A stretch of DNA of 64,000 nt from a virus. A model generated the notes under the pieces. It was given only the letters and a program-made list of their open reading frames with translations, was not told the origin of the DNA and made no database searches. The translations under genes were made by a program, and so were the position numbers. The stretch covers positions 10,000 to 73,999 of IMG/VR virus record IMGVR_UViG_3300014836_000691; one strand, 5' to 3'. This document shows positions 31,651 through 62,642 of the stretch, in pieces (position 1 is the first letter of the stretch; each line of letters begins with the position of its first letter).

Positions 31651-32373
31651 ATGGCTACGAGAAGCACCAAAGCCTCTGCTGGTAGTGTCCAAGACACTAT
31701 TACCGCAGAAAAGAATGTAAGAACCGACTTTGATACATACGAAGGTCGCTTCAATGTTTCGGCGGCTAATGCGTATGACTTCACAAAGACAGACCCCAAG
31801 GAAGGCATCGAAGCCGTTGCTAAGAGAGACGGTCAAGCCCCTACTAGGGAAGAAGTTACGATTGCTGAGCGTGTCTTTGATGGGGTTTCCTCTCTAGTTG
31901 ATAAGGGACTTCTCAAGTCCCACGCTGACGAGACTACCAATACGGATATTGGCAACGGCACTCGCCCCCAAATCTACAGCAGAGAGATTAATGGGGGTAG
32001 AGATGTTGAGTTTTACGCCGTTCAGATGGAAAAGAACCCTATCGCTGGTAGAGCCGTTATGGATAAGGCTTACTTCCTGTTCAAGATTCCGAACACGAAG
32101 TTCAGCCAAGACGATATGGTTTCTACGCCACAATGGGTGGAGGGGGTGGCAAACGAAGTTCTCTTCTCTGCCTCCAAGACCGCCTCGACCACACAGGCTA
32201 ATATCCCGAATCGAACCCCAGATTACATCGACAAGGTTGAGAGAGCCAGACAGACGGCTATCAGCCTTGATACAAACAGAGCAAGGAATGAGGGTGCAAG
32301 TGACGACTTCTTTGCCGACAGAAATCGTGAATTGAATCTTTCCAAGGTTCGCCAAAGACAACTCGCTGGTTAA
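31651..32373 (+). CDS. MATRS-leader protein 1, unknown cargo
   Basis: MATRSTKAS...VRTD (variant site). Confidence 0.8.
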   Translation: MATRSTKASAGSVQDTITAEKNVRTDFDTYEGRFNVSAANAYDFTKTDPKEGIEAVAKRDGQAPTREEVTIAERVFDGVSSLVDKGLLKSHADETTNTDIGNGTRPQIYSREINGGRDVEFYAVQMEKNPIAGRAVMDKAYFLFKIPNTKFSQDDMVSTPQWVEGVANEVLFSASKTASTTQANIPNRTPDYIDKVERARQTAISLDTNRARNEGASDDFFADRNRELNLSKVRQRQLAG

Positions 32374-32381
32374 CTACATTT

Positions 32382-33056
32382 ATGGCTACTCGTTCTACAG
32401 GTCAAACAACAGGGCAGGGACTGCAAAGCGATGTTCAGTATCGAAGAGGCAACCCCGCTTTTGACAATCTTCCCCAAAGTCCGTTGGATAAGATTTCTGA
32501 CCGCATTCCCCAAAAAGCCAATCTTATGAGCAAGGAAGAATACGATTCTATGCCCAAAGACTACAAGGCTACCATAGATGGGAAGAAGTTTGTTCTGGTT
32601 ATGGATTCTAGGGGCGGTGCGGCTCTCGCTCCTTGGATTGAGCGTGATGCTCGCATTCCCAAGGGCAAGTCCGCTTGGGACATTGGTCGTGATGAAGGTA
32701 GACAGTATGGACTGGACGATGAAGCCCTCCAGAATGCCCAGCGACTTGAGGCTGGTGGTCTTGGCAACGGACTTCTTACCGTCAATTCCTCGATGGGCGA
32801 CCCAGAGTTTGGTGGTTTCAAGGTTCGCTATCCAGACGCTTACCAACAGGCATACGACAGTTTCTTAATTGATAGCCGAAACCCAAAGAGCGTCAAACTC
32901 GCCGCCGTCGAAGCCCTCGATAAACTTAGCCGTAAGAATATTGATGGGATGAGTAGCACCCAAATCCAGACTGCCGTTACAGAGTATGTCCAAGATAAAC
33001 TTGGAGCGAAGTTTAAGGGCAGGGTTAAGTGGAATATGAAGTCTTACCCAGACTAA
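32382..33056 (+). CDS. MATRS-leader protein 2
   Basis: MATRSTGQTTGQGLQSD. Confidence 0.85.
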   Translation: MATRSTGQTTGQGLQSDVQYRRGNPAFDNLPQSPLDKISDRIPQKANLMSKEEYDSMPKDYKATIDGKKFVLVMDSRGGAALAPWIERDARIPKGKSAWDIGRDEGRQYGLDDEALQNAQRLEAGGLGNGLLTVNSSMGDPEFGGFKVRYPDAYQQAYDSFLIDSRNPKSVKLAAVEALDKLSRKNIDGMSSTQIQTAVTEYVQDKLGAKFKGRVKWNMKSYPD

Positions 33057-33112
33057 CCCCTGTGAATGTGGACTTGCCACACTCCGAAAACCTAGGAGGC
33101 GGGCTTATTATT

Positions 33113-34437
33113 ATGGATATAGCCCCTGCGAGGGGCTGTCTTGAGTGTGGTAAGTGTGAATGGGGCTTTTCGTTGATGGATACAAATGAAAGGTTCGATT
33201 TACTTACTAACAAGCCCTTAAAGTTCTGGAATGCTAGGTCTGACTGCCTATCGTGCGGAACGGAATACAGATGGAAAGTAGACCCCGATAAACCTTACCC
33301 CGAATCCTACAAATGACACCTTCACAATCCAAACGAATCCAAAACATCTTCAACCTTGTTCAAAACATCCGTAGGGCGTTAGACAAGGAAGCCTCCACAG
33401 GAGGCATCGGTGGAGTTGCAAAAGACTTCGGAACTCATATCGACTTAGACGATGCTATCTTTGGTATCCTCTACACCGAAAAAGCCCTCTCCAGAATCTA
33501 CGAGAGAGAGTCCTTCATCCGTGAACTCCCAGAGCGAAGCAAAGCCCGCTTAAAAGTCATTAAGCATATCTAGCCTATTATGCCTCGCCGTAAACCAAAG
33601 CCTCGGATTATAGAACGAAAACTCGGAAAGGAACAAGCGTGGGGACAGGCATTCCCCCATTCCTCCCGCCCGAAGATTGAGATAGACCCCCGCCTATCGG
33701 CACAAAGACACCTTGAGGTGATGTGCCACGAAGCCCTCCATATCGCCCTGCCAGACCTCGTAGGCAAGAAGGGTGAGGCAGAGGTAGACCGCATCGGTAA
33801 GGTAGTCAGCGATGCCCTCTGGCGTGGCTCATACAGGAAAGTCGTCCTGCACAACCCGCACACGACTCCTGTTCGCATTTCCCGCAAATCCAAAAAGAAA
33901 AACAGATGACAGCAAAAGAACTGATTGATAATGCCGTAAAGGGTGCTATCGTCCTTGAACCACAATCTACATTCAACACCGCCCTTGTGGGTGTGTCGAG
34001 CGATGGCAGACTGGTTTACTCCGAAGACAAAATCCTAATCGCCCTCCAAGAGAAAGACGGAATGGACTATGAAGAAGCCCTTGAGTGGTATCAATACAAC
34101 ACGGTCAGAACGCTCGACTACCAGAAGGGGCGTTACGCCCCGATTATCCTTACGCACACCCTGTAAGGTAGAGTTCTTCGATTGTGTTACGAGGTTCTTG
34201 GTTTCCTCCGAATCAAGACCAGATGAGGTGCATCTAGTTGACTTAGATGCGGACGACAGGGGACGCTACGAGTGTTCCTGCGAAGACTTCACCTTCCGTA
34301 ACCCAGACTGGACGCTAGCCCAAGTCTTCTACGAGTGTAAGCACATCCACGCCGCCAAGCAGTTCGTGCTAGCGGAGGCTAGCAAGTGTCCTAAGTTCAG
34401 ATTAAAGTCCGCACCAGACTTTCAAGACGAGTTGTAA
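33113..34437 (+). CDS. small genes: Zn-finger (33113-33316), hypothetical (33313-33573), HExxH metallopeptidase-like (33580-33909), hypothetical (33906-34166), SWIM Zn-finger (ending 34437)
   Basis: CLECGKC..CLSCG; CHEALH; CSCEDF...CKHIHA. Confidence 0.6.
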
Positions 34438-34529
34438 GTCGTTGCCCATCAGTCGTTTGTAAAAGTTTTGCCTTTGGTGTTGACTTATGTCCACCAATCA
34501 GTAAAACATTAGGAACAGACACGACCTAT

Positions 34530-39190: not shown

Positions 39191-39880
39191 ATGGCTACTC
39201 GCTCTTCTTCTCAAGGACTCGCCTCTGATGCCGTCGGAGGTGGTTACACCCCCAAGTTTAAAGGATGGGAGGCAGGTCTTAACGCTGCTCACAATCGTAG
39301 CATTGAAAAGGCTGACGAAAGATATGAAAAGGCACAAGACAACCGCTACGATGCGGCTGGCTCTGAGGATGAACATATGAAATCGAAGAGCATCGCCAAT
39401 TACGCATACAATCTTGCGGTAGATGCCTCTAGACTGAACGAAAAGGCAGAAAACGACTACATCCGTGGTGATGGGTCTACAGATGCGATTAAGGGAAGAG
39501 TCTTCAAGGATGCCTTAGACCAACTTTTGGGTTCTGACTTAAAGGATAAAGACGGCCCTAGAACCTTCGATTCCGAACGGCAAACGCTTATGTCTGCTTA
39601 CAGACGAAGTGCTGGTAGTGCAACTGACGAACAGGTTGAAACGGCATTCAATGATGAGGTGCTTACTGTCGTCCAAAGATTTGCTACTCAAATTGATGCT
39701 GTCTTAACGGCGAGGAAGCCTAGTGCAGATGCGTATCAAGATTTCAGAGGGGCTGTTAGTGCTTCTTGGGATGAATCTTTTGACAATGACTACAACGAAG
39801 GCGTAGTCCAAGCCGCATTAAGCATTATCGAAAAGACTTTCAAACTTACTAACGCAAAACTCACAGGAGAAGCACTCTAA
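39191..39880 (+). CDS. MATRS-leader protein 3
   Basis: MATRSSSQGLASD. Confidence 0.85.
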   Translation: MATRSSSQGLASDAVGGGYTPKFKGWEAGLNAAHNRSIEKADERYEKAQDNRYDAAGSEDEHMKSKSIANYAYNLAVDASRLNEKAENDYIRGDGSTDAIKGRVFKDALDQLLGSDLKDKDGPRTFDSERQTLMSAYRRSAGSATDEQVETAFNDEVLTVVQRFATQIDAVLTARKPSADAYQDFRGAVSASWDESFDNDYNEGVVQAALSIIEKTFKLTNAKLTGEAL

Positions 39881-39883
39881 CCT

Positions 39884-40684
39884 ATGGCTACTCGTTCCAA
39901 CAAGCAGGGCTTAGCCTCTGATATTTCAAACTACGAAAAAAGCGATGCCTCGTCTGCCCTTATGGGCAACTCGCTCTCTGCTGGAACTCAAGCCGCTGAG
40001 TTGCTGAGTGCCGACTCCAGTTCCAGAAGATATCGTGAGTCTCTGAGAGAGGCTGAGGTTGAAGCCGAAAACGGTAGCGAGTTTGAATACCTTGCCACCA
40101 CCGCCCTTAGAGATTACATCAAGGAGCAGGGGCTTGAGAACCAACTGTCGTCTGAAACAAAGGCGAAGATTAAAAAGTTTGATGAGATGGTTGAGAAGGG
40201 ACAAATGTCTTCTTCTACTGGTGGCTTAGAGCCTAGAGGCTTTGACAGGGTTGGAAACAACTTCTCCGTTTTTTCCAGAGATGTGGCTGACTCAATCAAA
40301 CTGGATACCCGCCACTTTATGAACAAGTCGCTCAGCAAATTGACGGGCTACAAGGAAGATGAGGCTAAGGGCTACGACCCTGTTGAAAGCCTTGGTAGGT
40401 TCTACCTTGGCAAGCGTGTTGCCCTTGTCGCCACAAGAGACGATGGCGTGAAGGCTGTTATTATGGATGAGAGCAGAGGCGAATCCAAGTTCAAGAAGGG
40501 CGATATCGTTGGCAACGCTGATTCCGGCCCTAACAACAGAGGCTGGACTGGCTCGGTTGTGAAAGTCATAAACTTTACCCCGCAAGACGCTCGGTTAGTT
40601 ATGGACAAATACAAGGCTGAGTGGTTTACTGACCCCTATCCCACCGTCAGAGACGGCAAGACAACCTTAGATACTACAGACTAA
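39884..40684 (+). CDS. MATRS-leader protein 4
   Basis: MATRSNKQGLASD. Confidence 0.85.
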   Translation: MATRSNKQGLASDISNYEKSDASSALMGNSLSAGTQAAELLSADSSSRRYRESLREAEVEAENGSEFEYLATTALRDYIKEQGLENQLSSETKAKIKKFDEMVEKGQMSSSTGGLEPRGFDRVGNNFSVFSRDVADSIKLDTRHFMNKSLSKLTGYKEDEAKGYDPVESLGRFYLGKRVALVATRDDGVKAVIMDESRGESKFKKGDIVGNADSGPNNRGWTGSVVKVINFTPQDARLVMDKYKAEWFTDPYPTVRDGKTTLDTTD

Positions 40685-40687
40685 TTT

Positions 40688-41401
40688 ATGGCAACTCGCT
40701 CTTCCAACCAAGGCACAGCCGCTTCCCTCGGAAGCGATTACAACTATGCCCAGTCGCAAAGACTTGAAAATAGAACTAATGAGGTGTTCAATGCCGAAGA
40801 CTTCCCGAAGTCGGCTAACGCCCCTACGATGAAGGCTTACAAGAACATCGCCACGAACATCGCCAAGTTCAGATTTGAGGGCGTTCCTAACGATGCTGAG
40901 GCTATGGAGCGATTCTTGGGCGAATGGCCTGCCGTCTTGAAGAGCCTTCAGATGGTCAGCCCCGATTTAAAACCAGATGAGGCTTTGTTTGCCTTCGGAA
41001 ATATTAACAAGGAACTTGGCAACACGGTTCGTAATGTCGAGGGTGCTAAGAACGGACAAGTGGTTTATGTTGGCGACAACATCAAATACAACGCAGGCCC
41101 AAAGGGTTCTGGTCTTAGACAGGGCATCTCGACCAAAAAGGATGCTGTGGTTGTCGCACAGGCGACTTCTGCCAACGGAGATAAATGGGTCAAAGTTGTT
41201 TCCAACACTCGGTTTTATATCGAAGACGGCAGAGAGCAGTCTTCCTCCGTCCTGTGGATTAGCGACAAGGGACAGGCTTTAACAAGCACCCTTGAAGCCG
41301 AAAAACTTAATCTTGAGGGTGATGGCAAGAAGACTCCTACGGCTGAGTTTGTTCAGTCCTTCTTTGAGTTCCATAAGCCGAAGGTTTGGCAAATCGGTTG
41401 A
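40688..41401 (+). CDS. MATRS-leader protein 5
   Basis: MATRSSNQGTAASLGSD. Confidence 0.85.
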   Translation: MATRSSNQGTAASLGSDYNYAQSQRLENRTNEVFNAEDFPKSANAPTMKAYKNIATNIAKFRFEGVPNDAEAMERFLGEWPAVLKSLQMVSPDLKPDEALFAFGNINKELGNTVRNVEGAKNGQVVYVGDNIKYNAGPKGSGLRQGISTKKDAVVVAQATSANGDKWVKVVSNTRFYIEDGREQSSSVLWISDKGQALTSTLEAEKLNLEGDGKKTPTAEFVQSFFEFHKPKVWQIG

Positions 41402-41409
41402 AAAACTGA

Positions 41410-42252
41410 ATGGCTACGAGAAGCAAGTCGAGTGGCAAACTTGAGTCGGACGATGATAAGTTGACCCGCTTGCTTGCGGGCGATGTTGAAGCCATCTTGG
41501 AGAAGAGTCTGAAGGGTGGCAATCTTTCGGACAAGCAACTGGCAAAGTATTTTGGCGTTTCCGAAGCGGAAATTGCCAAGGCTAAGTCCGACTTGGAGGC
41601 TTGGAAGAAGCAGAATGAGGGAAAGCAAGTGCCTCCGATGCCCGATGCGGGACAAGATTTTAATAATCTTTTAGACGGACAGGGCGTGGTTGCCGTTTGG
41701 AACGAGTTATACGGTAAGACGCATAATCCAGATGGGACTCCAAAGACGGCAGGTTCTCAACCCGCTGGACAAACCCCTGCGACAGCCCCGCAAACCAATC
41801 CAGTCACACAGGCTACCCAGACTAAGGGTCAGCCTACAACCCCAGCCCAAGCAGCCGCCCAAGCCCAACAACAGGCTTCTGGTGCTAAGCCCGCCAAAGC
41901 GGGCAAGGGTGGTAAAGGCGGTAAGGGTGGTAAAGGTGATGAGGCTCAAGCGAAGGGTGAAAAGAAGTCCATCCCTTGGTATATGAAGCGAGGCTCTGGC
42001 TTTGCTCGTCTTGTTTTTGGCGGTGGTCGTGGTTCTGTTGACCCGCTTTATTCGACCTACGGAACATCTGGCGGTGGCTCTGGTGTCATTGCTGGCGGTG
42101 CGGCTTCCCTTCCAGAATCCGTCCAAGCCCTTATTGACAAGGGCAGAAGGCGTAGGGGCGGTTCTCCGTCCAAACCCTCCGCACCCTCCGCACCCGCTTC
42201 TGGTGGTGGTGGTGGTGGCTCAGCCCCTTCGGGCGGTGGCGGTTCTAAGTAA
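41410..42252 (+). CDS. MATRS-leader protein 6, low-complexity (Q/A/P/G, GKG repeats)
   Basis: MATRSKSSGKLESD. Confidence 0.85.
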   Translation: MATRSKSSGKLESDDDKLTRLLAGDVEAILEKSLKGGNLSDKQLAKYFGVSEAEIAKAKSDLEAWKKQNEGKQVPPMPDAGQDFNNLLDGQGVVAVWNELYGKTHNPDGTPKTAGSQPAGQTPATAPQTNPVTQATQTKGQPTTPAQAAAQAQQQASGAKPAKAGKGGKGGKGGKGDEAQAKGEKKSIPWYMKRGSGFARLVFGGGRGSVDPLYSTYGTSGGGSGVIAGGAASLPESVQALIDKGRRRRGGSPSKPSAPSAPASGGGGGGSAPSGGGGSK

Positions 42253-42289
42253 GCCCCATTAGTCCTGTTGACAACGAGCAACATTACAA

Positions 42290-42703
42290 ATGGAAGCCTG
42301 TTCGGAAGCCACGGAACATATCCTTAACCTTACCCACACGGTGGCTAGGTTGAAGCAACTTGCCAGCACGGAGCAAATCCAGCGTGGCAAGATTATCGAC
42401 ATTGGAGAAGATATGCTGAAGGCTTGGATGAACGGCGAACCGTATTCCGAAGTCTATCACGCTAGATGGGCTGAGGCAACTGACCCGAAGTCGCTCGAAA
42501 AGAAGTTCAAGCAAATCAACAAAGAGTTCGACAGGAAAGAACAGGAACAGCGTGAGCAGATGCAGATGACTGCTGAACAGAAGGCTAATCAGCAGAAGGA
42601 AAAGGAAGCAGAGGCGATTAACGCCGATGCCAAACTTCAGAAGGCTAAGAACTCGCTCAAGGACGCTGAGGACAAGGCTAACAAGAAGAAAGAGGGCAAG
42701 TAA
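42290..42703 (+). CDS. hypothetical coiled-coil protein, no leader
   Basis: ORF after TTGAC-N6-CAA at 42268. Confidence 0.65.
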   Translation: MEACSEATEHILNLTHTVARLKQLASTEQIQRGKIIDIGEDMLKAWMNGEPYSEVYHARWAEATDPKSLEKKFKQINKEFDRKEQEQREQMQMTAEQKANQQKEKEAEAINADAKLQKAKNSLKDAEDKANKKKEGK

Positions 42704-42705
42704 TC

Positions 42706-43629
42706 GTGGCTACAAGAGGCACATCCGCATCAATGGGGTCGGCGGTAACTCTTGCTTCTGATGCCAAATCGCTAGGCAAGGTGGTTGGCGATTACACCAA
42801 GTCCAAGGACTTGTTTGACCAATTTATTGCTAGGCAGGAAAAGATTGAGGAACGCAAACTGAACAAGGGCGAAGTCCTTAAAATCTTAGGCAACATCCTA
42901 GAGGATATCGACAATCACGAAGATAGGATGGAAAGATGGGAAAAGGAACTGAGAGACACCAAGTTTTACAACGATTACACCCGCAAGGAGGGTAGAGGGG
43001 GTAAGGACATTCCCGAAAGCGAATGGAAGCCCGCCAAGCCCCTCCCGACTAAGCCAGAACCGCTTTCTGGGACTGTTGCAGAGGTGGCTGATAAACTTAA
43101 TGAGTTCTTGGGTCGAGTCGCACACCACCAGTCTAACGATTCATCTTTCGCCAAGAATCCAGACGCTTTGGTTGAGGCTTTCAACGACCTCCCAGAAGTG
43201 ATTAAGCCGTTCGTGTTAGCCCCTAGGGGGCTGATTAAGAGGCTGTATAGGGGTGATGAGGCTGGCAAGTCTGAGATTGTGCAGGGTAGAGGGGTGGCAT
43301 CCTTTGCTACCACGCCTCGAAATGTAGGCTTCTGGGGTAGGTATGTTTATAAAGGCTCAGATATAGAGTCATTTGCTGGCATCATCGACACAGGTCGTAT
43401 CGTCAAGAACTTCGACTCTTACTCCAAGATTGGCGAACTGCTTGGCACTATCGCTAGAAACTCTATCGAAATAGGGGATGATGAGGACGAGAAGATTGTG
43501 TTTGGCATTAAGTGGAAGAAGAATGTCGGTGACCGAGATTGGATGGACAAAAACGGCAGAAAATCCGACACTTTTAAGGAAAAATACTACGAAAATCCAA
43601 GGTTAAAGGAAAACAGGTTTGACGACTGA
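42706..43629 (+). CDS. MATRS-leader protein 7, ADP-ribosyltransferase-like (R-S-E)
   Basis: MATRG...LASD; LYRG, VASF, DDEDEKIV. Confidence 0.7.
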   Translation: MATRGTSASMGSAVTLASDAKSLGKVVGDYTKSKDLFDQFIARQEKIEERKLNKGEVLKILGNILEDIDNHEDRMERWEKELRDTKFYNDYTRKEGRGGKDIPESEWKPAKPLPTKPEPLSGTVAEVADKLNEFLGRVAHHQSNDSSFAKNPDALVEAFNDLPEVIKPFVLAPRGLIKRLYRGDEAGKSEIVQGRGVASFATTPRNVGFWGRYVYKGSDIESFAGIIDTGRIVKNFDSYSKIGELLGTIARNSIEIGDDEDEKIVFGIKWKKNVGDRDWMDKNGRKSDTFKEKYYENPRLKENRFDD

Positions 43630-43635
43630 TGAATG

Positions 43636-43662
43636 GGGGCGTGAAAAACGCCCCTTCTTTTT
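43636..43662 (+). terminator. rho-independent terminator
   Basis: GGGGCGT-GAAAA-ACGCCCC followed by TTCTTTTT. Confidence 0.8.
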
Positions 43663-43702
43663 GCTCGTTGACAAACATTCAAAGATAACCACTATTTTAG
43701 TT

Positions 43703-44443
43703 ATGGCAACTCGCTCAACCAATGCTGGATTAGGTTCTGATTTTAGACCTAGAGGCTCTTTTTCCTACGGAACAGGAATCGCCGCACAGGTCGAGGCTGG
43801 CATCGACAAGGCACACAAGAACCGTGTTGGTGCAGATTCTTACGCTAAGTCCCTTTCGGACGATGCTCTTGCTAAGGCGTGGGAGGCTACAAGCAGAGAG
43901 TATGATAGAATGTCTAGGGGTGCGGACGAGTTTGATAAGGAGAACCCCGAAGCGGGCAACTTTGGCTCTGCTGACTCGTATGTAAGAATGGGTGCGGACA
44001 GTTACCACGACACCTACTACAAGCCAATCATCAATGAACTTTCTCGCAGATGGCTCAACACAGACGGAAAGCCCTTCTGGTTGGAATCTAGCGAACAGAA
44101 GAAATACAAAAGCCAAGGGGTTCAATACAGCGGTGAAAAACCTTGGGATTTACTACAGTATTATATGAACTATGAGGTGTCCCCTTCCGTTTCAATTAGT
44201 ATGCGAAGAGATGTTTCCAGAGGGTCTGGAAGCAAGGTTGATTTTAGCGGAGTCAGCGATGAAATTATCGCTAGGTCTGTCAAGATAGCCGAACAGGGGC
44301 TTGATGAGATTCGTAGAGAGTCGATTGAGCGTGATAAAAAGATTGGCAAAGACAACTATTACGAATCCAATTACCCCAAGGATTGGAAAGAGAACATCCT
44401 CGACCCTCTGGTTAACGAACTTAACAGACGCAAAAACAAATAA
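43703..44443 (+). CDS. MATRS-leader protein 8
   Basis: MATRSTNAGLGSD. Confidence 0.85.
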   Translation: MATRSTNAGLGSDFRPRGSFSYGTGIAAQVEAGIDKAHKNRVGADSYAKSLSDDALAKAWEATSREYDRMSRGADEFDKENPEAGNFGSADSYVRMGADSYHDTYYKPIINELSRRWLNTDGKPFWLESSEQKKYKSQGVQYSGEKPWDLLQYYMNYEVSPSVSISMRRDVSRGSGSKVDFSGVSDEIIARSVKIAEQGLDEIRRESIERDKKIGKDNYYESNYPKDWKENILDPLVNELNRRKNK

Positions 44444-44450
44444 TTAATTT

Positions 44451-45203
44451 ATGGCTACTCGCTCTCCAAAGGCTTCCACAGCCGCAGAACTTGGTTCGGA
44501 CATTCCTCGTAAGTCCGGCCCTGAGAACTTCAATGAGAACATTGAATATATGAAGAAGCGTTACTTTGGCGAAAACCAAGGTGCTTCCGCAAAGAAGGCT
44601 ACCGCTATCGTGGAAGGCATTGATGTTTCGTCTAAGACGAATGTTGACCTTAACCCCCTTCTTTACGCTAAGGCTATTACCAGAGTCCTTATGGACGACC
44701 TTGAGACGAAGAGTGGCAGAAATGTAGAACCTAATGGGCTAGTGGAAGTTGACGCTGAAGCGATGAAATACAATGTTGATATGATTTACACTAGCAGAAT
44801 CCACAATCAACTGGCTTCCAGCCTTGCTTTCAAGTTAACCACCGAACTTTTCAATACCGTTGGTGGCAATCAAAAGGAGGACAGTCCGTTTGCTATTGCT
44901 CCTTACAAGGAGAATGGGGTTAGAGTTGACCCGATGCAGATGTATCAAGACATTAGAAGCGTCCTTATGCAGTATGCGTCCGTCCACAGGGTTGTCAACA
45001 ACCTTGGCTTTGACGAGGGAGAGGACTCCGATAACAATCCAGTCCAGTTTGCCAGAGATACGATGCAACGCATCTACCAAGAGGTGAACAACTACGGTCA
45101 ATACGGTAAGGGTCAATTTGCTGAGATGTTCGATAAGGCTATGACTTCGTTCAAGTCCACACTTGAAAGCCCCGACTTCGACAGGAGAATCGGCAACGCT
45201 TAA
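44451..45203 (+). CDS. MATRS-leader protein 9
   Basis: MATRSPKASTAAELGSD. Confidence 0.85.
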   Translation: MATRSPKASTAAELGSDIPRKSGPENFNENIEYMKKRYFGENQGASAKKATAIVEGIDVSSKTNVDLNPLLYAKAITRVLMDDLETKSGRNVEPNGLVEVDAEAMKYNVDMIYTSRIHNQLASSLAFKLTTELFNTVGGNQKEDSPFAIAPYKENGVRVDPMQMYQDIRSVLMQYASVHRVVNNLGFDEGEDSDNNPVQFARDTMQRIYQEVNNYGQYGKGQFAEMFDKAMTSFKSTLESPDFDRRIGNA

Positions 45204-45212
45204 TGCAACTTT

Positions 45213-45905
45213 ATGGCAACTCGTTCCAATAAACAGGGTCTGGCTTCCGATGTTTCCTCGACTGGTCGAGGTGGCTTCTCCGCTGGTCGTGACCAAGCCG
45301 AATTGCTTGGCTCTATCACTCAAGCAAATGGGGCTAAGGACAAGGAAAGGACAAACATTTTCCGTGAAATTAGGGCTGGTCAAAGCGACAGAGTGTTTGA
45401 AAGCGTGACTTTCCCACAGGCGGTCACAAAACTGCTTGGCGACAACCTTGCATTTGAGGACTACGGCTACATTCTACAGTCTTTAAACTCTAGCGAAAGA
45501 ATGGGAAGTGGCACAGGCTATCAAGACAACGCATTAAATAGCGATGATTTTGAAGTAATCCTCAAACAAAGAGACAAATCTCTTGGACTGGTTGAAAACT
45601 TGCTCGATTATAACAACGGAAACATTGGTTATTCCGTTATTACGGATGCGGGAGCGTTTCCAAAGGGAGGCAATCCCAACAACGAGGCATCTGCCAAGGT
45701 CAGAAATGCCTTGTTTGATATGTATGAGGCTGGACAAAAAATGGAAAAGGCTATTAAAACCTACGAAGAGGTCAGAGATATGTCGGAAAGCCAGAAACTC
45801 AGAAGGGCAGACGGAACAGCCCTTTGGGGCAGGGCAAGAAAAGACCTTGCAAACGCATTAATTGATTTCAGAGAGGCAAGAAACTCCGTTAAGGAACAAG
45901 CGTAA
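45213..45905 (+). CDS. MATRS-leader protein 10
   Basis: MATRSNKQGLASD. Confidence 0.85.
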   Translation: MATRSNKQGLASDVSSTGRGGFSAGRDQAELLGSITQANGAKDKERTNIFREIRAGQSDRVFESVTFPQAVTKLLGDNLAFEDYGYILQSLNSSERMGSGTGYQDNALNSDDFEVILKQRDKSLGLVENLLDYNNGNIGYSVITDAGAFPKGGNPNNEASAKVRNALFDMYEAGQKMEKAIKTYEEVRDMSESQKLRRADGTALWGRARKDLANALIDFREARNSVKEQA

Positions 45906-45909
45906 TTTT

Positions 45910-46524: not shown

Positions 46525-46527
46525 CCT

Positions 46528-47708: not shown

Positions 47709-47742
47709 GCGAGGAGCGTCTGGTTGACTAAGCACCAAAAAG

Positions 47743-48810: not shown

Positions 48811-48813
48811 TAA

Positions 48814-49680
48814 ATGGCATCGAGAAGTTCATCGTCAACCTTAGCGTCTGATGTTCGTGAAGAGCAGAACAAGAATCCTGCTATTCAGAAAATGCGGAAC
48901 GCATTTAGCACCGTCTTGGGCGAAAAGGATACCGAGGGTAATCGCAACGGTAGGCTGACGGTAAAGATGAGTGCGGAGGAGAGGACTGGTAATCCTAGTT
49001 GGTATCCAGACTCTGATTTGATGGAAAAGGAGTTAGGAGGCGAAATCAAGCCCCTCACCAACCCGAACTTCAAGAATGAGGGCGAGGATTCTATGCACAA
49101 ACTCGCTATGTCTTGGCGAAAGAACGAGTTTGAAAGCATCGCATTTTTCACGAAGGACGGAAAGTTCCTAGGTAAGACGCAATCGGCGTTTGACGACCCT
49201 CATCGGGTCGAAGTTCCCAATCGTCTTGCTTACCGTCTGAGCAAGGAGGACGGCGTTTCCATCCACAACCACCCGCAGAGCGACCTTTCGTTCTCGCACA
49301 CGGACATTCAGACTTGGCTTCAAGAGAATGTAAGTGAAATGATGGTTGTGAGTAAGAACTTTATTTATTCCATCCGACAGAAGGAAGACAACTCTGGTCG
49401 TGGGGCCCCTGTGGGCAAGCGAGACACCGGCCCTAGACCCTACCAGATTGCCAAAGAGTTTATCGACTCTCTGGGTGACGAGGCTGAAATCCGTAAGACG
49501 GTAGACTCTATTGCTAGGGCTGGCTGGATTGAAAAGGGCAAGAAGGTGTATGGGGACGAGGGTGGTGTCCCCAAGCAGATTGTGCCTTTCGCACATTGGA
49601 ACAGAATGTTGCAGAACCTTTCTGAGAAGCACGGCTTCGTCTACAAGGTCTACAGACTGCCCAAAGAACAGCCCGCCTAA
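48814..49680 (+). CDS. MATRS-leader protein 14, JAB/MPN metalloenzyme-like
   Basis: MASRSSSSTLASD; E...SIHNHPQSDLSFSHTD. Confidence 0.75.
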   Translation: MASRSSSSTLASDVREEQNKNPAIQKMRNAFSTVLGEKDTEGNRNGRLTVKMSAEERTGNPSWYPDSDLMEKELGGEIKPLTNPNFKNEGEDSMHKLAMSWRKNEFESIAFFTKDGKFLGKTQSAFDDPHRVEVPNRLAYRLSKEDGVSIHNHPQSDLSFSHTDIQTWLQENVSEMMVVSKNFIYSIRQKEDNSGRGAPVGKRDTGPRPYQIAKEFIDSLGDEAEIRKTVDSIARAGWIEKGKKVYGDEGGVPKQIVPFAHWNRMLQNLSEKHGFVYKVYRLPKEQPA

Positions 49681-49701
49681 GCACCTCATTGGTGCTTCTT
49701 T
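49679..49701 (+). terminator. probable terminator
   Basis: AAGCACC-TCATT-GGTGCTT followed by CTTT. Confidence 0.6.
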
Positions 49702-49741
49702 GCTCTATTGACAAGAACCAAAGGGCAAACCAGCATTCTTT

Positions 49742-50470
49742 ATGGCAACCCGAAGCACAGGTCAAAGTCTTGCGAGCGACATTGGTGGTCTTAACTACAC
49801 CAAGAAATACGAAGATAATCCGTATTCGTCTCCCAGAACCAATACGATTATGCGTATTGCTAGGGCTTCTGACGGTCTTACCCTTGGAAATACGGCGTAT
49901 GACGCTAGAGGAAATCGGGTAGGTTTTATTCGTGAGGATGGAACGATTGATAGTTCCGTTGCCGTCCCCCAGCAATCCCCGAAGGAGTTTGCGGCTACCG
50001 ACAAGGCTATCAAGGCTATGGCTGGCTCGTTTGTGGCTCTAGATAAGGGGATGAGGGTTGGAACACCTCTGGAATTACAGAAACTTGCGGTCAAACTGGC
50101 TAACGATTCTCAGAAGGTCTTGAGAAGCCTTGGATACGGTCTTGATACGGTTTCTTGGAACGACCCTCAGAGTGCTTCGGACTTTATCGCAAGGGTTAAC
50201 AGAGACGGCTTTACCTATGCAAAGGAGGCTTTGAGAAATTACTTTTGGTCGCAAGCAACAGGTCACGCGGCTTACGGACGAGAAATCTATGATGAGCAAG
50301 AGAAGAGTGTAACATTGGCTTCTGGTGCAGGGTCGGCAAGCGACCCAGAGGGTAATGTTGAAATCTACGAAAGCACAATCAACAATCCCAAGGCTAGAGC
50401 CGAGTATGAGTCTACCGTAAGACAGCAAAAGAAGTTCAACAACTACCGAGGTATGGTCAAGGAGGACTAA
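49742..50470 (+). CDS. MATRS-leader protein 15
   Basis: MATRSTGQSLASD. Confidence 0.85.
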   Translation: MATRSTGQSLASDIGGLNYTKKYEDNPYSSPRTNTIMRIARASDGLTLGNTAYDARGNRVGFIREDGTIDSSVAVPQQSPKEFAATDKAIKAMAGSFVALDKGMRVGTPLELQKLAVKLANDSQKVLRSLGYGLDTVSWNDPQSASDFIARVNRDGFTYAKEALRNYFWSQATGHAAYGREIYDEQEKSVTLASGAGSASDPEGNVEIYESTINNPKARAEYESTVRQQKKFNNYRGMVKED

Positions 50471-50473
50471 CCT

Positions 50474-51118
50474 ATGGCAACCCGAAGCACACCACAGGCT
50501 TTAGCAAGTGATGCCGTTCCACGGCAACCAAAGGAAAAGAAGATTTCCGTAGCAGAAAAGCGTCTGGCTTTCAAAAAGATGTATGACTTTTCTGGCGACA
50601 AGGAAACGCAGGGGGTCGCACAAAAACTTGCGGAAGCACCTCAGTCCGAAAGAAAGTTGTTTGTTGATTTCGTCAAAACCATCAAAGCCTATCAAGGCGA
50701 CCAGCATTTCAGAAAGAAGGGGTATCTTGAACGCCGTGAGGCTATTTACAAGGCATACGATGCCCTCCCCCAGTATGCCAAAGATGTCATTGGTAGACCC
50801 GAAGAATCCATAAAAGATTTGGTTCGTGGTGCTACCACAAAGGCTGAGGCTGGATTAAACGGAAAGGTTAACGCTTCTTTTGAGTTAAAGATTACATCCA
50901 CAGGTGTATGGGGCAACGACACAGGAACTCGAAAGGAATACACCGCTAACGAAATCAAATCTTTTGACGATATTATTTCCTTCCACAAGGCTTGGGAAAT
51001 AGCCAGCAATCTAAGTGATACAAGAGTGGTAAAGGGCAGTTCTCTGGACAGAACTGACGAATCTTACCAAAACGAGTTCTTGGTTACCAACATCAAGTGG
51101 AAAGACGGAGTTGTGTAA
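50474..51118 (+). CDS. MATRS-leader protein 16, ART-like
   Basis: MATRSTPQALASD; LVRG, NASF, YQNEFLV. Confidence 0.65.
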   Translation: MATRSTPQALASDAVPRQPKEKKISVAEKRLAFKKMYDFSGDKETQGVAQKLAEAPQSERKLFVDFVKTIKAYQGDQHFRKKGYLERREAIYKAYDALPQYAKDVIGRPEESIKDLVRGATTKAEAGLNGKVNASFELKITSTGVWGNDTGTRKEYTANEIKSFDDIISFHKAWEIASNLSDTRVVKGSSLDRTDESYQNEFLVTNIKWKDGVV

Positions 51119-51121
51119 TTT

Positions 51122-51793
51122 ATGGCTACCCGAAGCACAAACAAGTCGCTTCAATCTGACATTCAAGAACCCATCAGACTTACAGGCAGGTTTGTTCATA
51201 GAACAGTAGGCGAAGAGCCTAACAGAAATGCCGAGCAAGCCGTCAGAACAGATAACGCAATTAGCGAGTTGGAGTCATTAGGCACTCCTAACCCAAACAT
51301 TTCCGCTGAAGACTACGGCAAGCACTTTGATTTTTACACGGAAGACGGCTCTAAGGCTACCTTTGCCGTATCTCGTAATGCGTGGGATGACTCTTTCTAT
51401 CTGAGAACAATTGAAAGCGTATCTGGTAAGGGGGCAGGAACTGCCTTTATGAAAAAGATGGTAGAGATTGCCGACAAATACAATGTCCCGATTAGCCTTA
51501 ATGTAGAGCCGTTTACTAGAGATAGAAATGTTGAATCCACTCAAAAAGCCAGAGAAAGGGCTAATGAGGCTATAAAAAAGAACCGTGAAGAAGCGAAGGC
51601 TAGGGGCGAACTCCCCAAGCCGATGAAAATAGATTTTTCTGGTGGAGTAAAGGTAGTCTCCACGCCTTCATTTGATAAGATTGTAGCGTTCTACGAGCGT
51701 TTTGGCTTTAAGCACACGCCAAAAAGCAAAACTAAGGTGTCTGGCGACTATGTTATGATTCGCCAGCCTAATGGGGGCGAGGAAGAGGCTTGA
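51122..51793 (+). CDS. MATRS-leader protein 17, GNAT acetyltransferase-like
   Basis: MATRSTNKSLQSD; GKGAGTAFMKKMVEIADKY..ISL; VAFYERFGF. Confidence 0.75.
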   Translation: MATRSTNKSLQSDIQEPIRLTGRFVHRTVGEEPNRNAEQAVRTDNAISELESLGTPNPNISAEDYGKHFDFYTEDGSKATFAVSRNAWDDSFYLRTIESVSGKGAGTAFMKKMVEIADKYNVPISLNVEPFTRDRNVESTQKARERANEAIKKNREEAKARGELPKPMKIDFSGGVKVVSTPSFDKIVAFYERFGFKHTPKSKTKVSGDYVMIRQPNGGEEEA

Positions 51794-52281
51794 TGGCGAC
51801 ACGAAGCACACAGGCTAACTTGCTCCGTTCGGACATTAAGGGCTTTGATGCAGTCCCAGTAGAGCGAGGAACATCCAAGGTGAAAGACGGCTATGTAAGG
51901 GTCTATCACCAAACATCCCCAGAGAACATAGAGTCTATTCGCAAGACTGGTTTGCTTGTGGAGAAATCAAGGTCGTCCTCCGAATCCAGAGGAGTTTCCG
52001 TATCTGACACCCCATTCTACGGAAATAACCCTAATCTTGTTACTATCGAACTTCAAATCCCAAAGGAAGTTAAGGCAAAATCCCAAGGTCTTGCCCTTCA
52101 GCAAGACATTCCAGCAAGCGACATACTGGCTATTCACGAACCTTGGCACGACAAGGTTAGATACATTGAACAGAATCCAGTTACGCTGAAAGAAGTTCTA
52201 AACGGAGACTTTGACTATCTTCTTAATGACGAAGAATATGGCAGGGCTGTTCGTTATATTAAAGGAAAGGAACAGGCTTAA
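51793..52281 (+). CDS. MATRS-leader protein 18, His-type ART-like
   Basis: MATRSTQANLLRSD; VYHQTSPENIESIRKTGL; DIPASDI. Confidence 0.65.
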   Translation: MATRSTQANLLRSDIKGFDAVPVERGTSKVKDGYVRVYHQTSPENIESIRKTGLLVEKSRSSSESRGVSVSDTPFYGNNPNLVTIELQIPKEVKAKSQGLALQQDIPASDILAIHEPWHDKVRYIEQNPVTLKEVLNGDFDYLLNDEEYGRAVRYIKGKEQA

Positions 52282-52916
52282 TGGCGACCAGAAGCACAAG
52301 CAAATCCCTCAATTCCGACCTTCCTAGTTCTGGGAGTGAAACATTGTTCAATCTGGCAAACGCAGTTTATTTACACATAAGGGGCAACTGGGGGTATAGA
52401 ACACAGGCAAACCTAGATAGGTTAATCGAAAACAAAAAGGACATAGTGAGGCTGTTCAAGCAACTTCCAGAAGACATAAAGAAGGCGTGTTCTGGCGAAG
52501 CGGATGGGAAGCCTCTTTATCGTGGCGTGAGCGTGGATACCCTTAAAGAGTTTGGGGAGTGGAATAACGGAAAGTTTGTTTATGGATTCACGGACAGCCT
52601 TAACACGGCTAGAAGGTTTGCCAACGGACACACGGAAAACGGCTCAAGAGTCCTTACATTTGACGACATAGACTCGTATGGGGGCGTTATTGACCTCAAA
52701 AAACTGTCGAATGTAATCAAAGACTACAACAAAGATAAGCCGTTAGGCGACCATATCAAGGATTTTGGTGGATTTTCCGATGCCTACGGAGAGACTGAAT
52801 ACTTGGTTTACGACATTAAGTTTAAGACCAGACCAGACGGCAAGTTCTACTCAGATAAACCGTATGAGCAAGGGGCTTGGGATAACTACGAAAGGTTCAA
52901 CCCCTTGAACGCTTGA
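52281..52916 (+). CDS. MATRS-leader protein 19, ART-like
   Basis: MATRSTSKSLNSD; LYRGV, FTDSLNTARRFA, GETEYLV. Confidence 0.7.
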   Translation: MATRSTSKSLNSDLPSSGSETLFNLANAVYLHIRGNWGYRTQANLDRLIENKKDIVRLFKQLPEDIKKACSGEADGKPLYRGVSVDTLKEFGEWNNGKFVYGFTDSLNTARRFANGHTENGSRVLTFDDIDSYGGVIDLKKLSNVIKDYNKDKPLGDHIKDFGGFSDAYGETEYLVYDIKFKTRPDGKFYSDKPYEQGAWDNYERFNPLNA

Positions 52917-52919
52917 TTT

Positions 52920-53549
52920 ATGGCGACTAGAAGCGGGAACAGAAACGGAAGCGAGTCCCTTCGCTCTGACCTTTCTCAAGGCGGTGACTCGGATGCAAGG
53001 ATGAGAGAGCGAGTGCTTCGTTCTGCAATAGGTAGCAAGGCTGAGGCTAAGAGCATTAGCGACTTCACCAAGGAACTGGAATACTACCAGTCCAACCGCA
53101 GAAACAGGGATAAAAGCCGTGTTATTAAGGCTTTCAATGAACTCCCATCAGCCGTTCAGAAATACATTTCTGAGCCAGCCAATAAGATTAAAGAACTCTA
53201 CCGTGGCTTTGACAATAATCCCGACAGGCAGGGCGTAGCGTCCTTTACGGACAACTACCAAGCGGCTCTCAACTTCGGAAGCAAGGTCATTAGGTCAAAA
53301 GACTTAGAAAAGTTTGACGGAATAATCAACACGCAGAAGTTTATGAAACTGCTGGATACGAGTGGCAAGGCGGGCGGTTCGCTTGCCGATTTGGTCGCCC
53401 CAGAGCATAGGTTGCGTAGGGACGAGGGTGAATATATAGTGTATGGGGGAGTATATAAAAAGAACATTGGAGACAAAGACTGGATGGAAGAAAACTCCCG
53501 CTTTATGATGGAAAACTACGGCGTTAAAACCCCAAAGGTTAAGCCGTAG
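52920..53549 (+). CDS. MATRS-leader protein 20, ART-like
   Basis: MATRSGNRNGSESLRSD; LYRGF, ASFTDNYQAALNFG, DEGEYIV. Confidence 0.7.
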   Translation: MATRSGNRNGSESLRSDLSQGGDSDARMRERVLRSAIGSKAEAKSISDFTKELEYYQSNRRNRDKSRVIKAFNELPSAVQKYISEPANKIKELYRGFDNNPDRQGVASFTDNYQAALNFGSKVIRSKDLEKFDGIINTQKFMKLLDTSGKAGGSLADLVAPEHRLRRDEGEYIVYGGVYKKNIGDKDWMEENSRFMMENYGVKTPKVKP

Positions 53550-54796: not shown

Positions 54797-54868
54797 AGTG
54801 AAGAGGTTAGGGGTTTCTTGGGCTAAGACAAGATTAAAGATTGACGACAGTCAACCCTGTGTTAGCGT

Positions 54869-55909: not shown

Positions 55910-55948
55910 TTTCCACAACACACGACACACACACAACACGCACTAACT

Positions 55949-56887: not shown

Positions 56888-56921
56888 CCAACCCAGATAA
56901 ACAACCAACCCAACAAAGCAA

Positions 56922-58739: not shown

Positions 58740-58787
58740 GTGCCTTGCGTTCCAGTTGACAACAGGCAAAAACATAACCCTACGAAT

Positions 58788-59567: not shown

Positions 59568-59573
59568 TAACCG

Positions 59574-61070: not shown

Positions 61071-61112
61071 TTTTGAGGTTGAAACACACCCTGTTCTGGG
61101 TAGAACCTTTTA

Positions 61113-61544
61113 ATGAACTTAGGCGAGAGTAGTGTAAGTGCTAGCACACCGCTTTTCCAAAGCGGAAGTGGCGGTTCAACTCCGACCCTCTCGCACCAAT
61201 TGATTGAAAAGATAAAGCGTTGCCTAAGCCCAGATTTGCTTAAGAAACAATACAGGGCAAAGAATGCGGACAATCCCACCTACGGTCATTGTTATATTGC
61301 AACGGAAGCCCTGTTTTACTCGCTGAACGATAGTAGGTATGCCCCCGCTAGGGGCAGGGACGATTCTGGCGTGGTGCATTGGTGGATTGTAGATAGGGCG
61401 ACAGGTGAAATCCTAGACCCGACAGCAGAACAATACACAAGCCAAGGGCTGACTCCTCCCTACGCACAGGGACGGTGTGGTGGCTTTCTGACCAAGACAC
61501 CTTCTCAGCGGTGCAAGACCTTGCTTGCTAGAATGCGAGAATGA
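61113..61544 (+). CDS. Cys-His-Asp (papain/transglutaminase-like) small protein; true start uncertain
   Basis: GHCYIATEAL, VHWW, ILDPTAEQY; the first about 29 codons overlap the tRNA. Confidence 0.6.
   Translation: MNLGESSVSASTPLFQSGSGGSTPTLSHQLIEKIKRCLSPDLLKKQYRAKNADNPTYGHCYIATEALFYSLNDSRYAPARGRDDSGVVHWWIVDRATGEILDPTAEQYTSQGLTPPYAQGRCGGFLTKTPSQRCKTLLARMRE
61123..61198 (+). tRNA. atypical tRNA-Gly(TCC)
   Basis: GCGAGAG/CTCTCGC acceptor, loop TTTCCAA, encoded CCA; no D-loop GG; bulged A in the T-stem. Confidence 0.75.
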
Positions 61545-62182
61545 GCAAGGAAAAAGAAAATAAAGGATTGGCGATACAGTCCTTCCTCACCTTGGCTGAC
61601 CAGCCGACAGGATACTTTGTCAGAGAGGTTTCCTTGGACGAAACCAAGCAGTTTATCCTCAAGATACATTACGCCAGACGAATGCCTGTGGTTAGCCACG
61701 CATTTGGCTTATTGCACAACGGCGAATTGGTAGGCATAGTAACCTACGGCATCCCCGCCAGCAGTCATTTGTGCAGGGGTGTGTGCGGAGACGACAAAAA
61801 GGGCATCGTAATCGAACTGAACAGGCTATGCTTGCTCCACAACAGGAAAAACGAAGCCTCTATGCTCGTTTCCAGAAGTATGCAGATGCTTCCCAAGCCC
61901 AAAGTGGTCGTTTCCTACGCCGACACCGAGCAGGGTCATTTGGGCATCGTCTATCAAGCCTGTAACTTTCTCTTTACTGGAAGCACAAGAGAACGGACGG
62001 ACATAGCGTCAGCGGACGGCAAGCATAGCCGTCACCACCTTGGCGACTTGACCAAGCGACAGAAGCGTAGTTCCAAGCACAGATACATTTACTTCGTGGG
62101 CAACAAGAATGAGGTAAGGGAATTGAAGGGGCTTTTAAGATATAAAGTTCAACCATTCCCGACACGAAAACAGGCTGGTTGA
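61541..62182 (+). CDS. mom: Mom-like GNAT adenine-modification enzyme
   Basis: FILKIHY, VGIVTYG, IELNRL, NEASMLVSRS, VVSYADTEQGHLGIVYQACNFLFTG, SKHRYIY. Confidence 0.8.
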   Translation: MSKEKENKGLAIQSFLTLADQPTGYFVREVSLDETKQFILKIHYARRMPVVSHAFGLLHNGELVGIVTYGIPASSHLCRGVCGDDKKGIVIELNRLCLLHNRKNEASMLVSRSMQMLPKPKVVVSYADTEQGHLGIVYQACNFLFTGSTRERTDIASADGKHSRHHLGDLTKRQKRSSKHRYIYFVGNKNEVRELKGLLRYKVQPFPTRKQAG

Positions 62183-62204
62183 CTAGCGTCAAAGGTTGCT
62201 AGGT

Positions 62205-62642
62205 ATGGCGACACGAAGCGACAGACAACGGCTTGCTAGAGCCGATTTTAACTATTCTGGACTATCAGTCCGTTCTACTACCTCATTCCAACAGGAATTG
62301 AACAGAGAACAACAGGGCAATCGAGATAAGTTCAGATTCCCTTCCTTTTCTGCCGTCCCTTCGGCTACGCCGAATCTGGATGTTGGTGGTTTCCTTCGGA
62401 GCAATCCAGAGGGGTCGCTAGGCGACATTGTGGCAAGCGGTGATACCTTTATATCGTCTAAGGATAGGGCTACCTATGTCGTAGAGGATGTAGGGAACAG
62501 GAAACTTACGGCAAGGCGTGTGTCCGCTAATGAGAGCGAGGGGGCGACTGTCGGCTATGTCGTAGAGCGAGATGCCAACGGTCAGCCTGTAGGACTTAGG
62601 GAGAAGGGCGTAAGACCGCCCAACAGAGCCGTATTCGGTTAA
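62205..62642 (+). CDS. MATRS-leader protein 24
   Basis: MATRSDRQRLARAD, after TTGAC-N6-CAAA at 62179. Confidence 0.8.
   Translation: MATRSDRQRLARADFNYSGLSVRSTTSFQQELNREQQGNRDKFRFPSFSAVPSATPNLDVGGFLRSNPEGSLGDIVASGDTFISSKDRATYVVEDVGNRKLTARRVSANESEGATVGYVVERDANGQPVGLREKGVRPPNRAVFG

Follow-up and report, generated by a model that had tools for sequence, protein, structure and literature searches.

A short N-terminal leader on a large set of mostly unrelated proteins of an uncultured freshwater phage: a candidate head-targeting propeptide

The window analyzed here, 64,000 nucleotides of a 73,999-bp virus contig (IMG/VR record IMGVR_UViG_3300014836_000691, bases 10000-73999), encodes a large set of phage proteins that begin with the same short peptide, hereinafter the leader or tag, followed by cargos most of which are unrelated to one another. 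The tag system occurs widely and on an unusually large scale, and has a trait in common with the capsid-targeting sequence (CTS) of phage T4, namely, a short leader shared by otherwise unrelated proteins. The explanation that we favor, to which we give about an even chance, is that the leader is a CTS-like head-targeting propeptide that would be cut after its first acidic residue by the putative S49-type prohead protease of the phage. Below, coordinates are those of the window unless preceded by "genome", in which case they refer to the contig.

The leader and its genes

The original prediction, made from the sequence of the window, listed 24 leader genes. All 24 starts translate to (M/V)A(T/S)R(S/G/T) followed by a polar linker, with L-x-S-D within residues 1-19 in 20 of them and VRTD, LGSN, LMAD and LARAD in the other four, as had been claimed; two of the genes, 42706 and 57861, use a GTG start codon. 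The family turned out to be larger than the approximately 18 kb initially attributed to it, because two members lie outside the window, one directly 3' of the capsid gene (genome 7894-8601, MATRGTSEKALKSD) and one directly 5' of it (genome 5294-5944, MATRRQAG...), the latter being the pre-capsid gene. Altogether, the 26 tagged genes encode 6,449 amino acids (aa) and occupy 19,425 nt, that is, 26% of the 74-kb contig. Most of these genes are organized in tight tandem arrays, with 15 junctions that have gaps of -1 to 9 nt (Table 1). The completeness of the contig is 72% according to CheckV; the large terminase gene, which is present in five relatives, is missing, so the contig is incomplete.

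When N-termini were clustered without reference to any pattern, by requiring at least 5 identities among the 7 positions from residue 2 to residue 8, the largest cluster included 24 proteins in this phage; two relatives yielded largest clusters of 21 and 13, compared with a mere 2 in every one of the four control records, so the resemblance is not due to chance. The placement of the leader is equally strict: in six-frame translations, the pattern stands directly after the start codon in 22 of the 23 matches here, and in 18 of 18 and 12 of 12 matches in the relatives denoted G001 and G005, respectively. The sole match in the genome that is not N-terminal, ATRCVLGTLRSD, spans residues 17-28 of a 611-aa tail-module protein and could be due to chance (rough estimate, ~0.04). 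The number of internal L.SD sites is 10; the expectation, derived from shuffled proteins taken whole and hence with their N-terminal sites, is 8.2 +/- 2.9.

The leader is maintained as a peptide. Its Ala codons are GCT (11), GCA (8) and GCG (6), its Arg codons are AGA (9), CGC (6), CGA (6) and CGT (4), and Ser is drawn from both codon families; since the codons vary synonymously but the encoded residues do not, what is under selection is the peptide and not the DNA, and this argues against a DNA-level repeat as the origin of the shared 5' ends. Alignment bears out the earlier observation that similarity stops at the Asp. The pre-capsid protein aside, the last leader residue is D in 24 of the 25 tagged proteins of this phage and N in the remaining one, and it is E in G001 and G005. 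By sequence pattern, the leader consists of two parts: a head that does not vary (MATRS or MARG) and an end marked by the first D or E. In the AlphaFold2 model of an ADP-ribosyltransferase (ART)-like cargo, leader residues 4-28 are disordered, with a predicted local distance difference test score (pLDDT) below 50 compared to the model mean of 82. Inspection of the leaders reveals neither a hydrophobic core nor a twin-arginine pattern; they are polar throughout.

Leader dialects in related phages

The capsid protein of this phage has 30 relatives in IMG/VR, at 64-86% identity. The only relative from a cultured phage, Verrucomicrobia phage P8625, is 35% identical; P8625 carries portal, Clp-like protease and capsid genes, and no tag family was detected within the 21 kb of its sequence examined. 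A single contig from a Verrucomicrobia metagenome-assembled genome matched the capsid protein, at 31% identity, which is insufficient for naming a host. Five relatives (G001-G005) were compared as whole contigs. In G001, 20 genes start with MARGYSQSRSE or close variants, and in G005, 14 genes start with MARG(S/N/Q)N..GRAARSE; no tag family was found in the whole contigs of G002, G003 and G004. Although G005 is rated 100% complete by CheckV, its contig ends inside an array, and accordingly, no arguments from genome size are made here. G002 (80.5 kb) and G003 (56 kb), together with loci L036-L042, form a distant subclade in which the capsid proteins are 64-66% identical to the one encoded here and the pre-capsid proteins start with MAGRTFY; this subclade lacks an N-terminal tag family despite contigs of similar size. 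Two untagged genes located inside the arrays, 42290-42703 and 47282-47563, are kept in G001 and G005, unlike their tagged neighbors, and could be helpers of the tag system.

Other loci show further dialects, such as MARGNNQSQSSVRSE, MARGSSKANSE, MARGQSRAMSE and MARGSLKSD. At least six leader types exist beyond those of G001 and G005. Comparison of the cargos from the three tagged phages divided 62 proteins into 10 groups, with 27 proteins, and 35 singletons. In every group that spans phages, each orthologue bears the leader of its own phage; for example, the cargos of window gene 51122 and G005 gene 7063 are 58.6% identical, and each carries the dialect of its own phage. This is the pattern expected of an address matched to a phage-specific receptor. 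The original prediction held that the leader lets the phage load and inject a swappable cocktail of anti-defense or host-takeover enzymes; the leader is modular across cargos and phages, and the loading and injection would follow if the reading favored here is correct.

Database orthologues of cargo 42706 start with MARGSSKAD, MARSSNRGLSSSVRSE, MPTRNGSS..SLRAD, variants ending in ..LGSN or ..LRSE, and MARGGSRAMSE. A full search with a hidden Markov model (HMM) of this ART-like cargo family yielded 145 representative clusters, of which 142 were examined, the other 3 being already known. The tag is present in 61 of the 142 clusters (52 MARG, 6 MPTR, 2 MARS and 1 MATR), and one more carries it once a wrongly called start is allowed for. 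In each of the 61, the leader terminates with the first acidic residue, which occupies position 8-19 (median, 11); Ser is at P2 in 29 clusters, and the mean net charge before the acidic residue is +2.6. The remaining 81 clusters consist mostly of free-standing domains of approximately 150 aa, and in a few the domain lies inside proteins longer than 1000 aa. Judging from these sequences, the MATR of this phage is one rare dialect of a widespread tag. Megablast of the arrays against phage records gave no match, and further locus scans added few new loci.

Linkage to the head module and a shared upstream motif

The head module, with its order conserved in the five relatives, consists of genes for the portal (phrog_21), the head maturation protease, an acidic protein, the pre-capsid protein and the capsid protein (phrog_283). 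The prohead protease that was to be sought in the rest of the genome is thus present (phrog_53, E = 1e-51). Sequence motifs and the "Clp protease-like" label of its P8625 homologue suggest that it is of the S49 (ClpP/SppA-like) type; it is not a gp21-type (herpesvirus-assemblin-like) prohead protease and is no homologue of T4 gp21. The third protein of the module is long, acidic, Lys-rich, coiled-coil and scaffold-like. The variable slot that separates the capsid gene from the head-completion gene holds tagged genes, namely, one in this phage (G000), three in G001 and two in G005. The pre-capsid protein itself starts with MATRR here, with MATRG, MATRS or MPTRSGGS in other members of an "xTR" subclade, and with MARGG in the MARG subclade; the "xTR" head co-varies between this conserved gene and the tags.

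The motif TTGAC-N6/7-CAA provides another link to virion genes. The window contains 28 copies, compared to 5.65 +/- 2.19 expected, and none of 100 shuffles reaches 28; the three tagged genomes contain 35, 19 and 14 copies, compared to 4.6, 4.1 and 1.8 in shuffles. The seven tagged genes said to lie directly behind the motif (31651, 43703, 47743, 49742, 57861, 58788 and 62205) indeed do so, and the copies claimed for tail genes are present before 5717 and 13327. In all three phages, a copy stands upstream of the capsid gene, at a distance of 48-60 nt, and another upstream of the protease gene, at 61 nt; among the family genes of the three, the motif precedes 8 of 26, 3 of 21 and 4 of 15, respectively. 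With tagged genes in the head slot, a pre-capsid protein that shares MATR or MARG, and a motif common to the capsid and protease genes, the leader is linked to the head module. The copy that ends 4 nt before the ATG of 47743 implies a nearly leaderless transcript. Generally, the motif can end 4-20 nt before a start codon, implying leaderless or near-leaderless mRNAs; a recognizable Shine-Dalgarno sequence is missing from most genes of the contig, and leader genes often start 3-9 nt after a stop codon (TAA-N3-ATG). Two copies of the motif are palindromic (TTGAC....GTCAA) and match both strands (54841-54854 and 62179-62192).

The cargos

All-against-all comparison of the 26 cargos with blastp and hhalign (325 pairs) linked only five of them, 42706, 50474, 52281, 52920 and genome 7894; a single full-length paralogous family, the outcome that would have spoken against the original prediction, is at odds with this result. 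At E <= 0.01, Pfam assigns no family to any of the 24 genes in the window, so that the labels initially given to some cargos (ART-like, JAB and GNAT) are not confirmed as written. Among the 20 of these genes compared with PHROGs (all but 50474, 52281, 52920 and 58788), the only match is phrog_4687 for 47743 (E = 2.8e-8), along with two weaker ones, phrog_32961 for 47743 and phrog_14082 for 51122, all of unknown function; genome 7894, which was run with the head proteins, has no PHROGs match.

The linked group probably represents a divergent ART, judging from sequence motifs and a structural model. R182 (LYRG), S199-F200, and E260 and E262 (E-x-E) are invariant or nearly so in 18 sequences. A conserved Arg, Ser-x-Ser and (Q/E)-x-E is the defining motif of R-S-E ADP-ribosyltransferases. 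The fold matches are weak: among the Foldseek matches of the model, the top ones are mostly ARTs, with ExoS at E = 0.054, and VIA-align gives Z of about 4.0-4.1 over residues 128-287. Profile searches were negative, with DRAT as the only Pfam match (E = 0.14, in one of six sequences), chance-level rows alone in a sequence-profile search of the PDB, and no match to PF03496 in this genome.

The evidence for the two other labels is similarly divided, and both assignments are weak. The motif HxH-x(6-7)-S-xx-D on which the JAB label could be based is present in 48814 and 57861, but the profile matches are sub-threshold (RadC, E = 0.31; Prok-JAB, 13.2 bits compared to a cut-off of 25). For 51122, the ESM Atlas features agree with GNAT (0.90-0.92 to GNAT clusters, with 10 of 10 in the same clan), but the match to Acetyltransf_7 (E = 0.024 over 12 residues) is sub-threshold, and PF00583 has no match in this genome. 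In the same Atlas, 48814 (48814-49680) falls near Phage_min_cap2 and Mu F clusters (features, 0.86-0.87; TM, 0.50-0.57). This resemblance to minor capsid or MuF proteins is a lead that the HMMs do not support, searches of this genome with MuF (PF04233) and with the minor capsid family PF06152 having given no match; were it to hold up, the tagged proteins would include a head-internal protein of a known kind.

Possible function of the leader

The two-part build of the leader, similar to that of the T4 CTS, and the prohead protease gene in the head module lead us to favor a head-targeting propeptide. Under this scenario, the constant head of the leader (MATRS in this phage and MARG, MPTR or MARS in its relatives) would attach the freshly synthesized protein to some component of the nascent prohead, with the acidic scaffold-like protein and the pre-capsid protein as candidate receptors; the pre-capsid protein itself seems to use the same docking feature. 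The positively charged linker, free of acidic residues, would lead to the small and acidic residues at its end (L-x-S-D here, x-S-E in relatives), where the S49-type protease would cut. Some 25 different mature proteins would then be freed inside the head and would exit with the DNA at infection. Of the packaging address with a cleavage site that was originally proposed, what is observed is the peptide leader on unrelated cargos, the acid-ended site, a prohead protease gene and the association with the head module, and from these, we infer packaging, cleavage and ejection by analogy to T4, along with docking and any anti-defense or takeover role.

Several observations weigh against this explanation. 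No cultured phage with the system was found when two MARG-type relatives were compared by tblastn with 50,697 phage records. Copies of the upstream motif are located before the tRNA array and before the RecT / PD-(D/E)XK / DUF669 operon as well, so that it does not prove late expression and instead marks a control shared with virion genes. At four loci with MARG leaders (L009, L011, L012 and L018), the pre-capsid protein starts with MP..., and its model (pLDDT 57.5) gave no usable match in a fold search. The cleavage sites that had been expected in other head proteins are not apparent: in the portal, scaffold, protease and capsid proteins, L.SD, x-S-D and x-S-E are absent or occur at about chance level, as gauged by a rough composition estimate. 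We found no published cleavage specificity of an S49-type prohead protease. In T4, a leader with Asp at the cleavage position is still targeted but no longer processed (PMC9026906), so an Asp-directed site in the present phage would need a different specificity. Finally, the isoelectric points of the cargos are mixed (median, 6.4) and not uniformly basic.

The link to the head module would fit equally well a leader that targets proteins to the virion and is not removed by the prohead protease, being either a permanent docking peptide (for the portal, the tail or the surface) or one cut by another enzyme, such as a cargo with the HxH..S..D motif. We consider this unlikely, even though it could accommodate the lack of matching cleavage sites in other head proteins, the non-acidic ends of some members (LGSN here, ARSS in G005 and SRSN in G001), a pre-capsid protein that could be an outer decoration protein, and the internal ATRCVLGTLRSD in one tail protein; conservation is no lower at the end of the leader than at its head, with a last residue that is uniform in each genome, and termination at the first acidic residue in 61 of 61 tagged clusters is typical of a cleavage site. 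A comparably low probability is assigned to an intracellular role, whereby the leader would be a degron or an inhibitory pro-sequence that times or restricts the action of potentially toxic enzymes, read by a protease of the host or by the ClpP/SppA-like protease of the phage acting outside the prohead. The leader is short, disordered, N-terminal and basic, several cargos resemble protein-modifying enzymes, the phage protease appears to belong to the ClpP/SppA-like S49 group, and the upstream motif is not late-specific, all in line with such a role. It would, however, leave unexplained the tagged genes inside the head module and the pre-capsid head that co-varies by subclade, and a host-read signal should not split into phage-specific dialects.

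It seems still less probable that the leader is a non-classical export or localization signal that would send proteins to the medium, to the envelope, to the nucleoid or to a compartment built by the phage. One N-terminal signal on diverse cargo is a hallmark of secretion and polymorphic-toxin systems, as characterized in the cited part of the literature (PMC5576092), but the leaders are polar and have neither a hydrophobic core nor a twin-arginine pattern, no secretion genes were seen in the contig, the dialects are phage-specific, and the tagged genes are tied to the head module. Very improbable, in our estimation, is a functionless peptide, the shared 5' end being a by-product of cassette shuffling or of the optimization of translation starts. 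The short junctions in the arrays with no obvious Shine-Dalgarno sequence would fit such an origin, as would a natural variant, described below, from which precisely one cassette, bounded by two leader starts, is missing, with 8 letters shared at the joint. Nevertheless, the peptide is fixed despite synonymous codon variation, a conserved site 10-17 residues downstream cannot be an effect of start context, and whole dialects are swapped on orthologous cargos.

Comparison with known systems

Should the leader be a head-targeting propeptide, its closest counterpart would be the T4 CTS. In the sections of the T4 literature cited here, the first 10 residues of internal protein IPIII suffice for packaging, the CTS comprises an N-terminal targeting part and an L/I-x-E end where it is processed, and the internal proteins of T-even phages are diverse, with only the CTS in common (PMC9026906, PMC3012670); T4 Alt is a packaged ART, and T-even relatives carry other CTS-like proteins (PMC9026906, PMC3012670, PMC5694885). 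Both systems combine a short N-terminal propeptide (10-20 residues) on diverse proteins with a targeting part and an acidic-ended site. The differences are considerable: the protease is apparently of the S49 type (ClpP/SppA-like, phrog_53) here but gp21 in T4; the site is x-S-D/E, with P1 Asp in this phage, as opposed to L/I-x-E; approximately 25 tagged genes, 26% of the contig, compare with a handful in T4; and the present system, known from genes alone, comes with a lambda-like head module, a long tape-measure gene and many lineage-specific dialects. Among jumbo phages, as reported in the corresponding part of PMC5694885, SPN3US gp53 and gp54 begin with the same 15 residues, with sites AXE-12 and SXE-15, although the proteins are only 34% identical, and phiKZ gp93 is cut at SLE-13. 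Shared N-termini on inner-head or ejection proteins and cleavage after an acidic residue (S/A/G-x-E) are likenesses to the leader system, but the proteases of those phages are of the gp21 type, their propeptides are mostly longer than 100 residues and the proteins are true paralogues, whereas the leader has 9-19 residues and most cargos are unrelated.

In MuF polymorphic toxins, a constant head-linked N-terminal module is combined with variable enzymatic or toxic C-terminal modules, as outlined in the relevant portion of PMC5576092. The leader system is similar to these and to polyvalent proteins in having a constant N-terminus and a variable cargo, and the ART-like domain also occurs inside proteins of more than 1000 aa; its constant part, however, is a peptide of 9-19 residues and not a folded MuF domain, in line with the negative PF04233 and PF06152 searches. 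A comparable arrangement of constant and variable modules has reportedly been described for the polyvalent proteins by Iyer et al. in 2017. Encapsulins offer another parallel, given that a short conserved cargo-loading peptide sends diverse cargo into a shell with the HK97 fold; these peptides are usually C-terminal and uncleaved, with neither DNA nor a protease involved. We found no published description of such a leader system in uncultured phages or in phages with an S49 protease, most subscription journals being outside the coverage of the search.

Natural variation and neighboring genes

The phage is present in freshwater and lake metagenomes from several studies. One DNA contig from a lake (run X3) represents a variant in which a joint between 51792 and 52281 removes exactly the leader gene 51793 (162 aa), the deletion running from the start codon of this gene up to that of the following one, and 8 letters are common to both sides of the joint; this is a cassette loss at leader boundaries. 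Other indels in the same run are located at 38576/38652 (75 bases), 49661/49682 (20 bases, with 68 others between) and 51535/51668 (132 bases). Contigs from two metatranscriptome libraries cover both the arrays and other parts of the genome patchily, as does the low-depth DNA run of the same study, and we draw no inference from them on transcription, timing or 5' ends.

The coordinates of the leader genes and motif copies, along with those of tRNA, DNA-modification and recombination genes in their vicinity, are collected in Table 1. The tRNA-Arg(TCT) of the tRNA array reads AGA, which is the commonest Arg codon of the leaders (9 of 25).

Table 1. Leader genes, motif copies and other features of the window
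Feature	Coordinates	Strand	Details
Leader gene, MATRS...VRTD variant, 240 aa	31651..32373	+	motif at 31617
Leader gene, MATRSTGQTTGQGLQSD, 224 aa	32382..33056	+
Array of 4 leader genes (39191, 39884, 40688, 41410)	39191..42252	+	gaps 3-8 nt
Untagged 137-aa gene inside arrays	42290..42703	+	motif at 42268; kept in G001 and G005; no Pfam family
Array of 7 leader genes (42706 [GTG], 43703, 44451, 45213, 45910, 46528 and neighbors)	42706..47277	+	42706 ART-like
Untagged 93-aa gene inside arrays	47282..47563	+	kept in G001 and G005; no Pfam family
Array of 9 leader genes (47743, 48814, 49742, 50474, 51122, 51793, 52281, 52920 and neighbors)	47743..53549	+	gaps -1 to 61 nt
Leader gene, GTG start, 230 aa	57861..58553	+	motif at 57839; second HxH..S..D candidate
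Leader gene, LGSN variant followed by proline-rich stretch, 259 aa	58788..59567	+	motif at 58756
Leader gene, MASRS...LMAD variant, 498 aa	59574..61070	+
Leader gene, LARAD variant, 145 aa	62205..62642	+	motif at 62179
Motif copies 5' of leader genes	31617, 43668, 49708, 57839, 58756, 62179	+
Motif 5' of leader gene 47743	47724..47738	+	ends 4 nt before ATG
Motif 5' of tail-module gene 5717	5684..5698	+
Motif 5' of tail-fiber gene 13327	13305	+
Internal leader-like stretch ATRCVLGTLRSD	11495-11530		inside tail-module gene 11447-13282
Array of 11 tRNAs (Gln, Thr, Ala, Glu, Trp, Asn, Pro, Arg-TCT, Lys, Leu, Met)	28258-29190		directly 3' of TTGAC-N7-CAA
Lone tRNA-Gly(TCC)	61123-61198		overlaps open reading frame 61113-61544; upstream of Mom-family gene
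Two Mom-like DNA-modification genes	3208-4128, 61541-62182		phrog_1384, E = 7.9e-16; Pfam Mom, E = 1.5e-36
PAPS-reductase-like gene	27154-28254		phrog_2302, E = 4e-79
ParB_N gene	29249-29872
Recombination module between two leader arrays: RecT-like, PD-(D/E)XK nuclease (DUF3799), DUF669	55097-57338

Implications

Tentatively, and with a probability that we put somewhat short of even, a fuller picture could be drawn of a clade of freshwater phages, possibly infecting Verrucomicrobia, with a tag code of 9-19 residues whose dialects co-evolve with the head machinery and the S49 protease. Such phages, mid-sized and long-tailed, would load about 20-25 different enzymes, including several ARTs, into the head and inject them, and would exchange cassettes at leader boundaries; the system would be a convergent, expanded counterpart of the CTS and a source of orthogonal tags.

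If the tag is a packaging address, a quarter of the genome is spent on proteins delivered together with the DNA, far beyond any described phage of similar size, and the injection of pre-made effectors would be a major strategy outside the T4-like and jumbo phages. The dialects would then provide a ready set of short tags, orthogonal to one another, with which capsids could be filled with foreign proteins, and the approximately 60 tagged cargos of the three genomes, most of which belong to no family, would form a catalogue of candidate host-takeover or anti-defense proteins. If, on the other hand, the tag is not a packaging signal, then a widespread N-terminal signal, carried by 61 of 142 clusters of a single domain family, calls for an explanation of a different kind, which would be at least as interesting.

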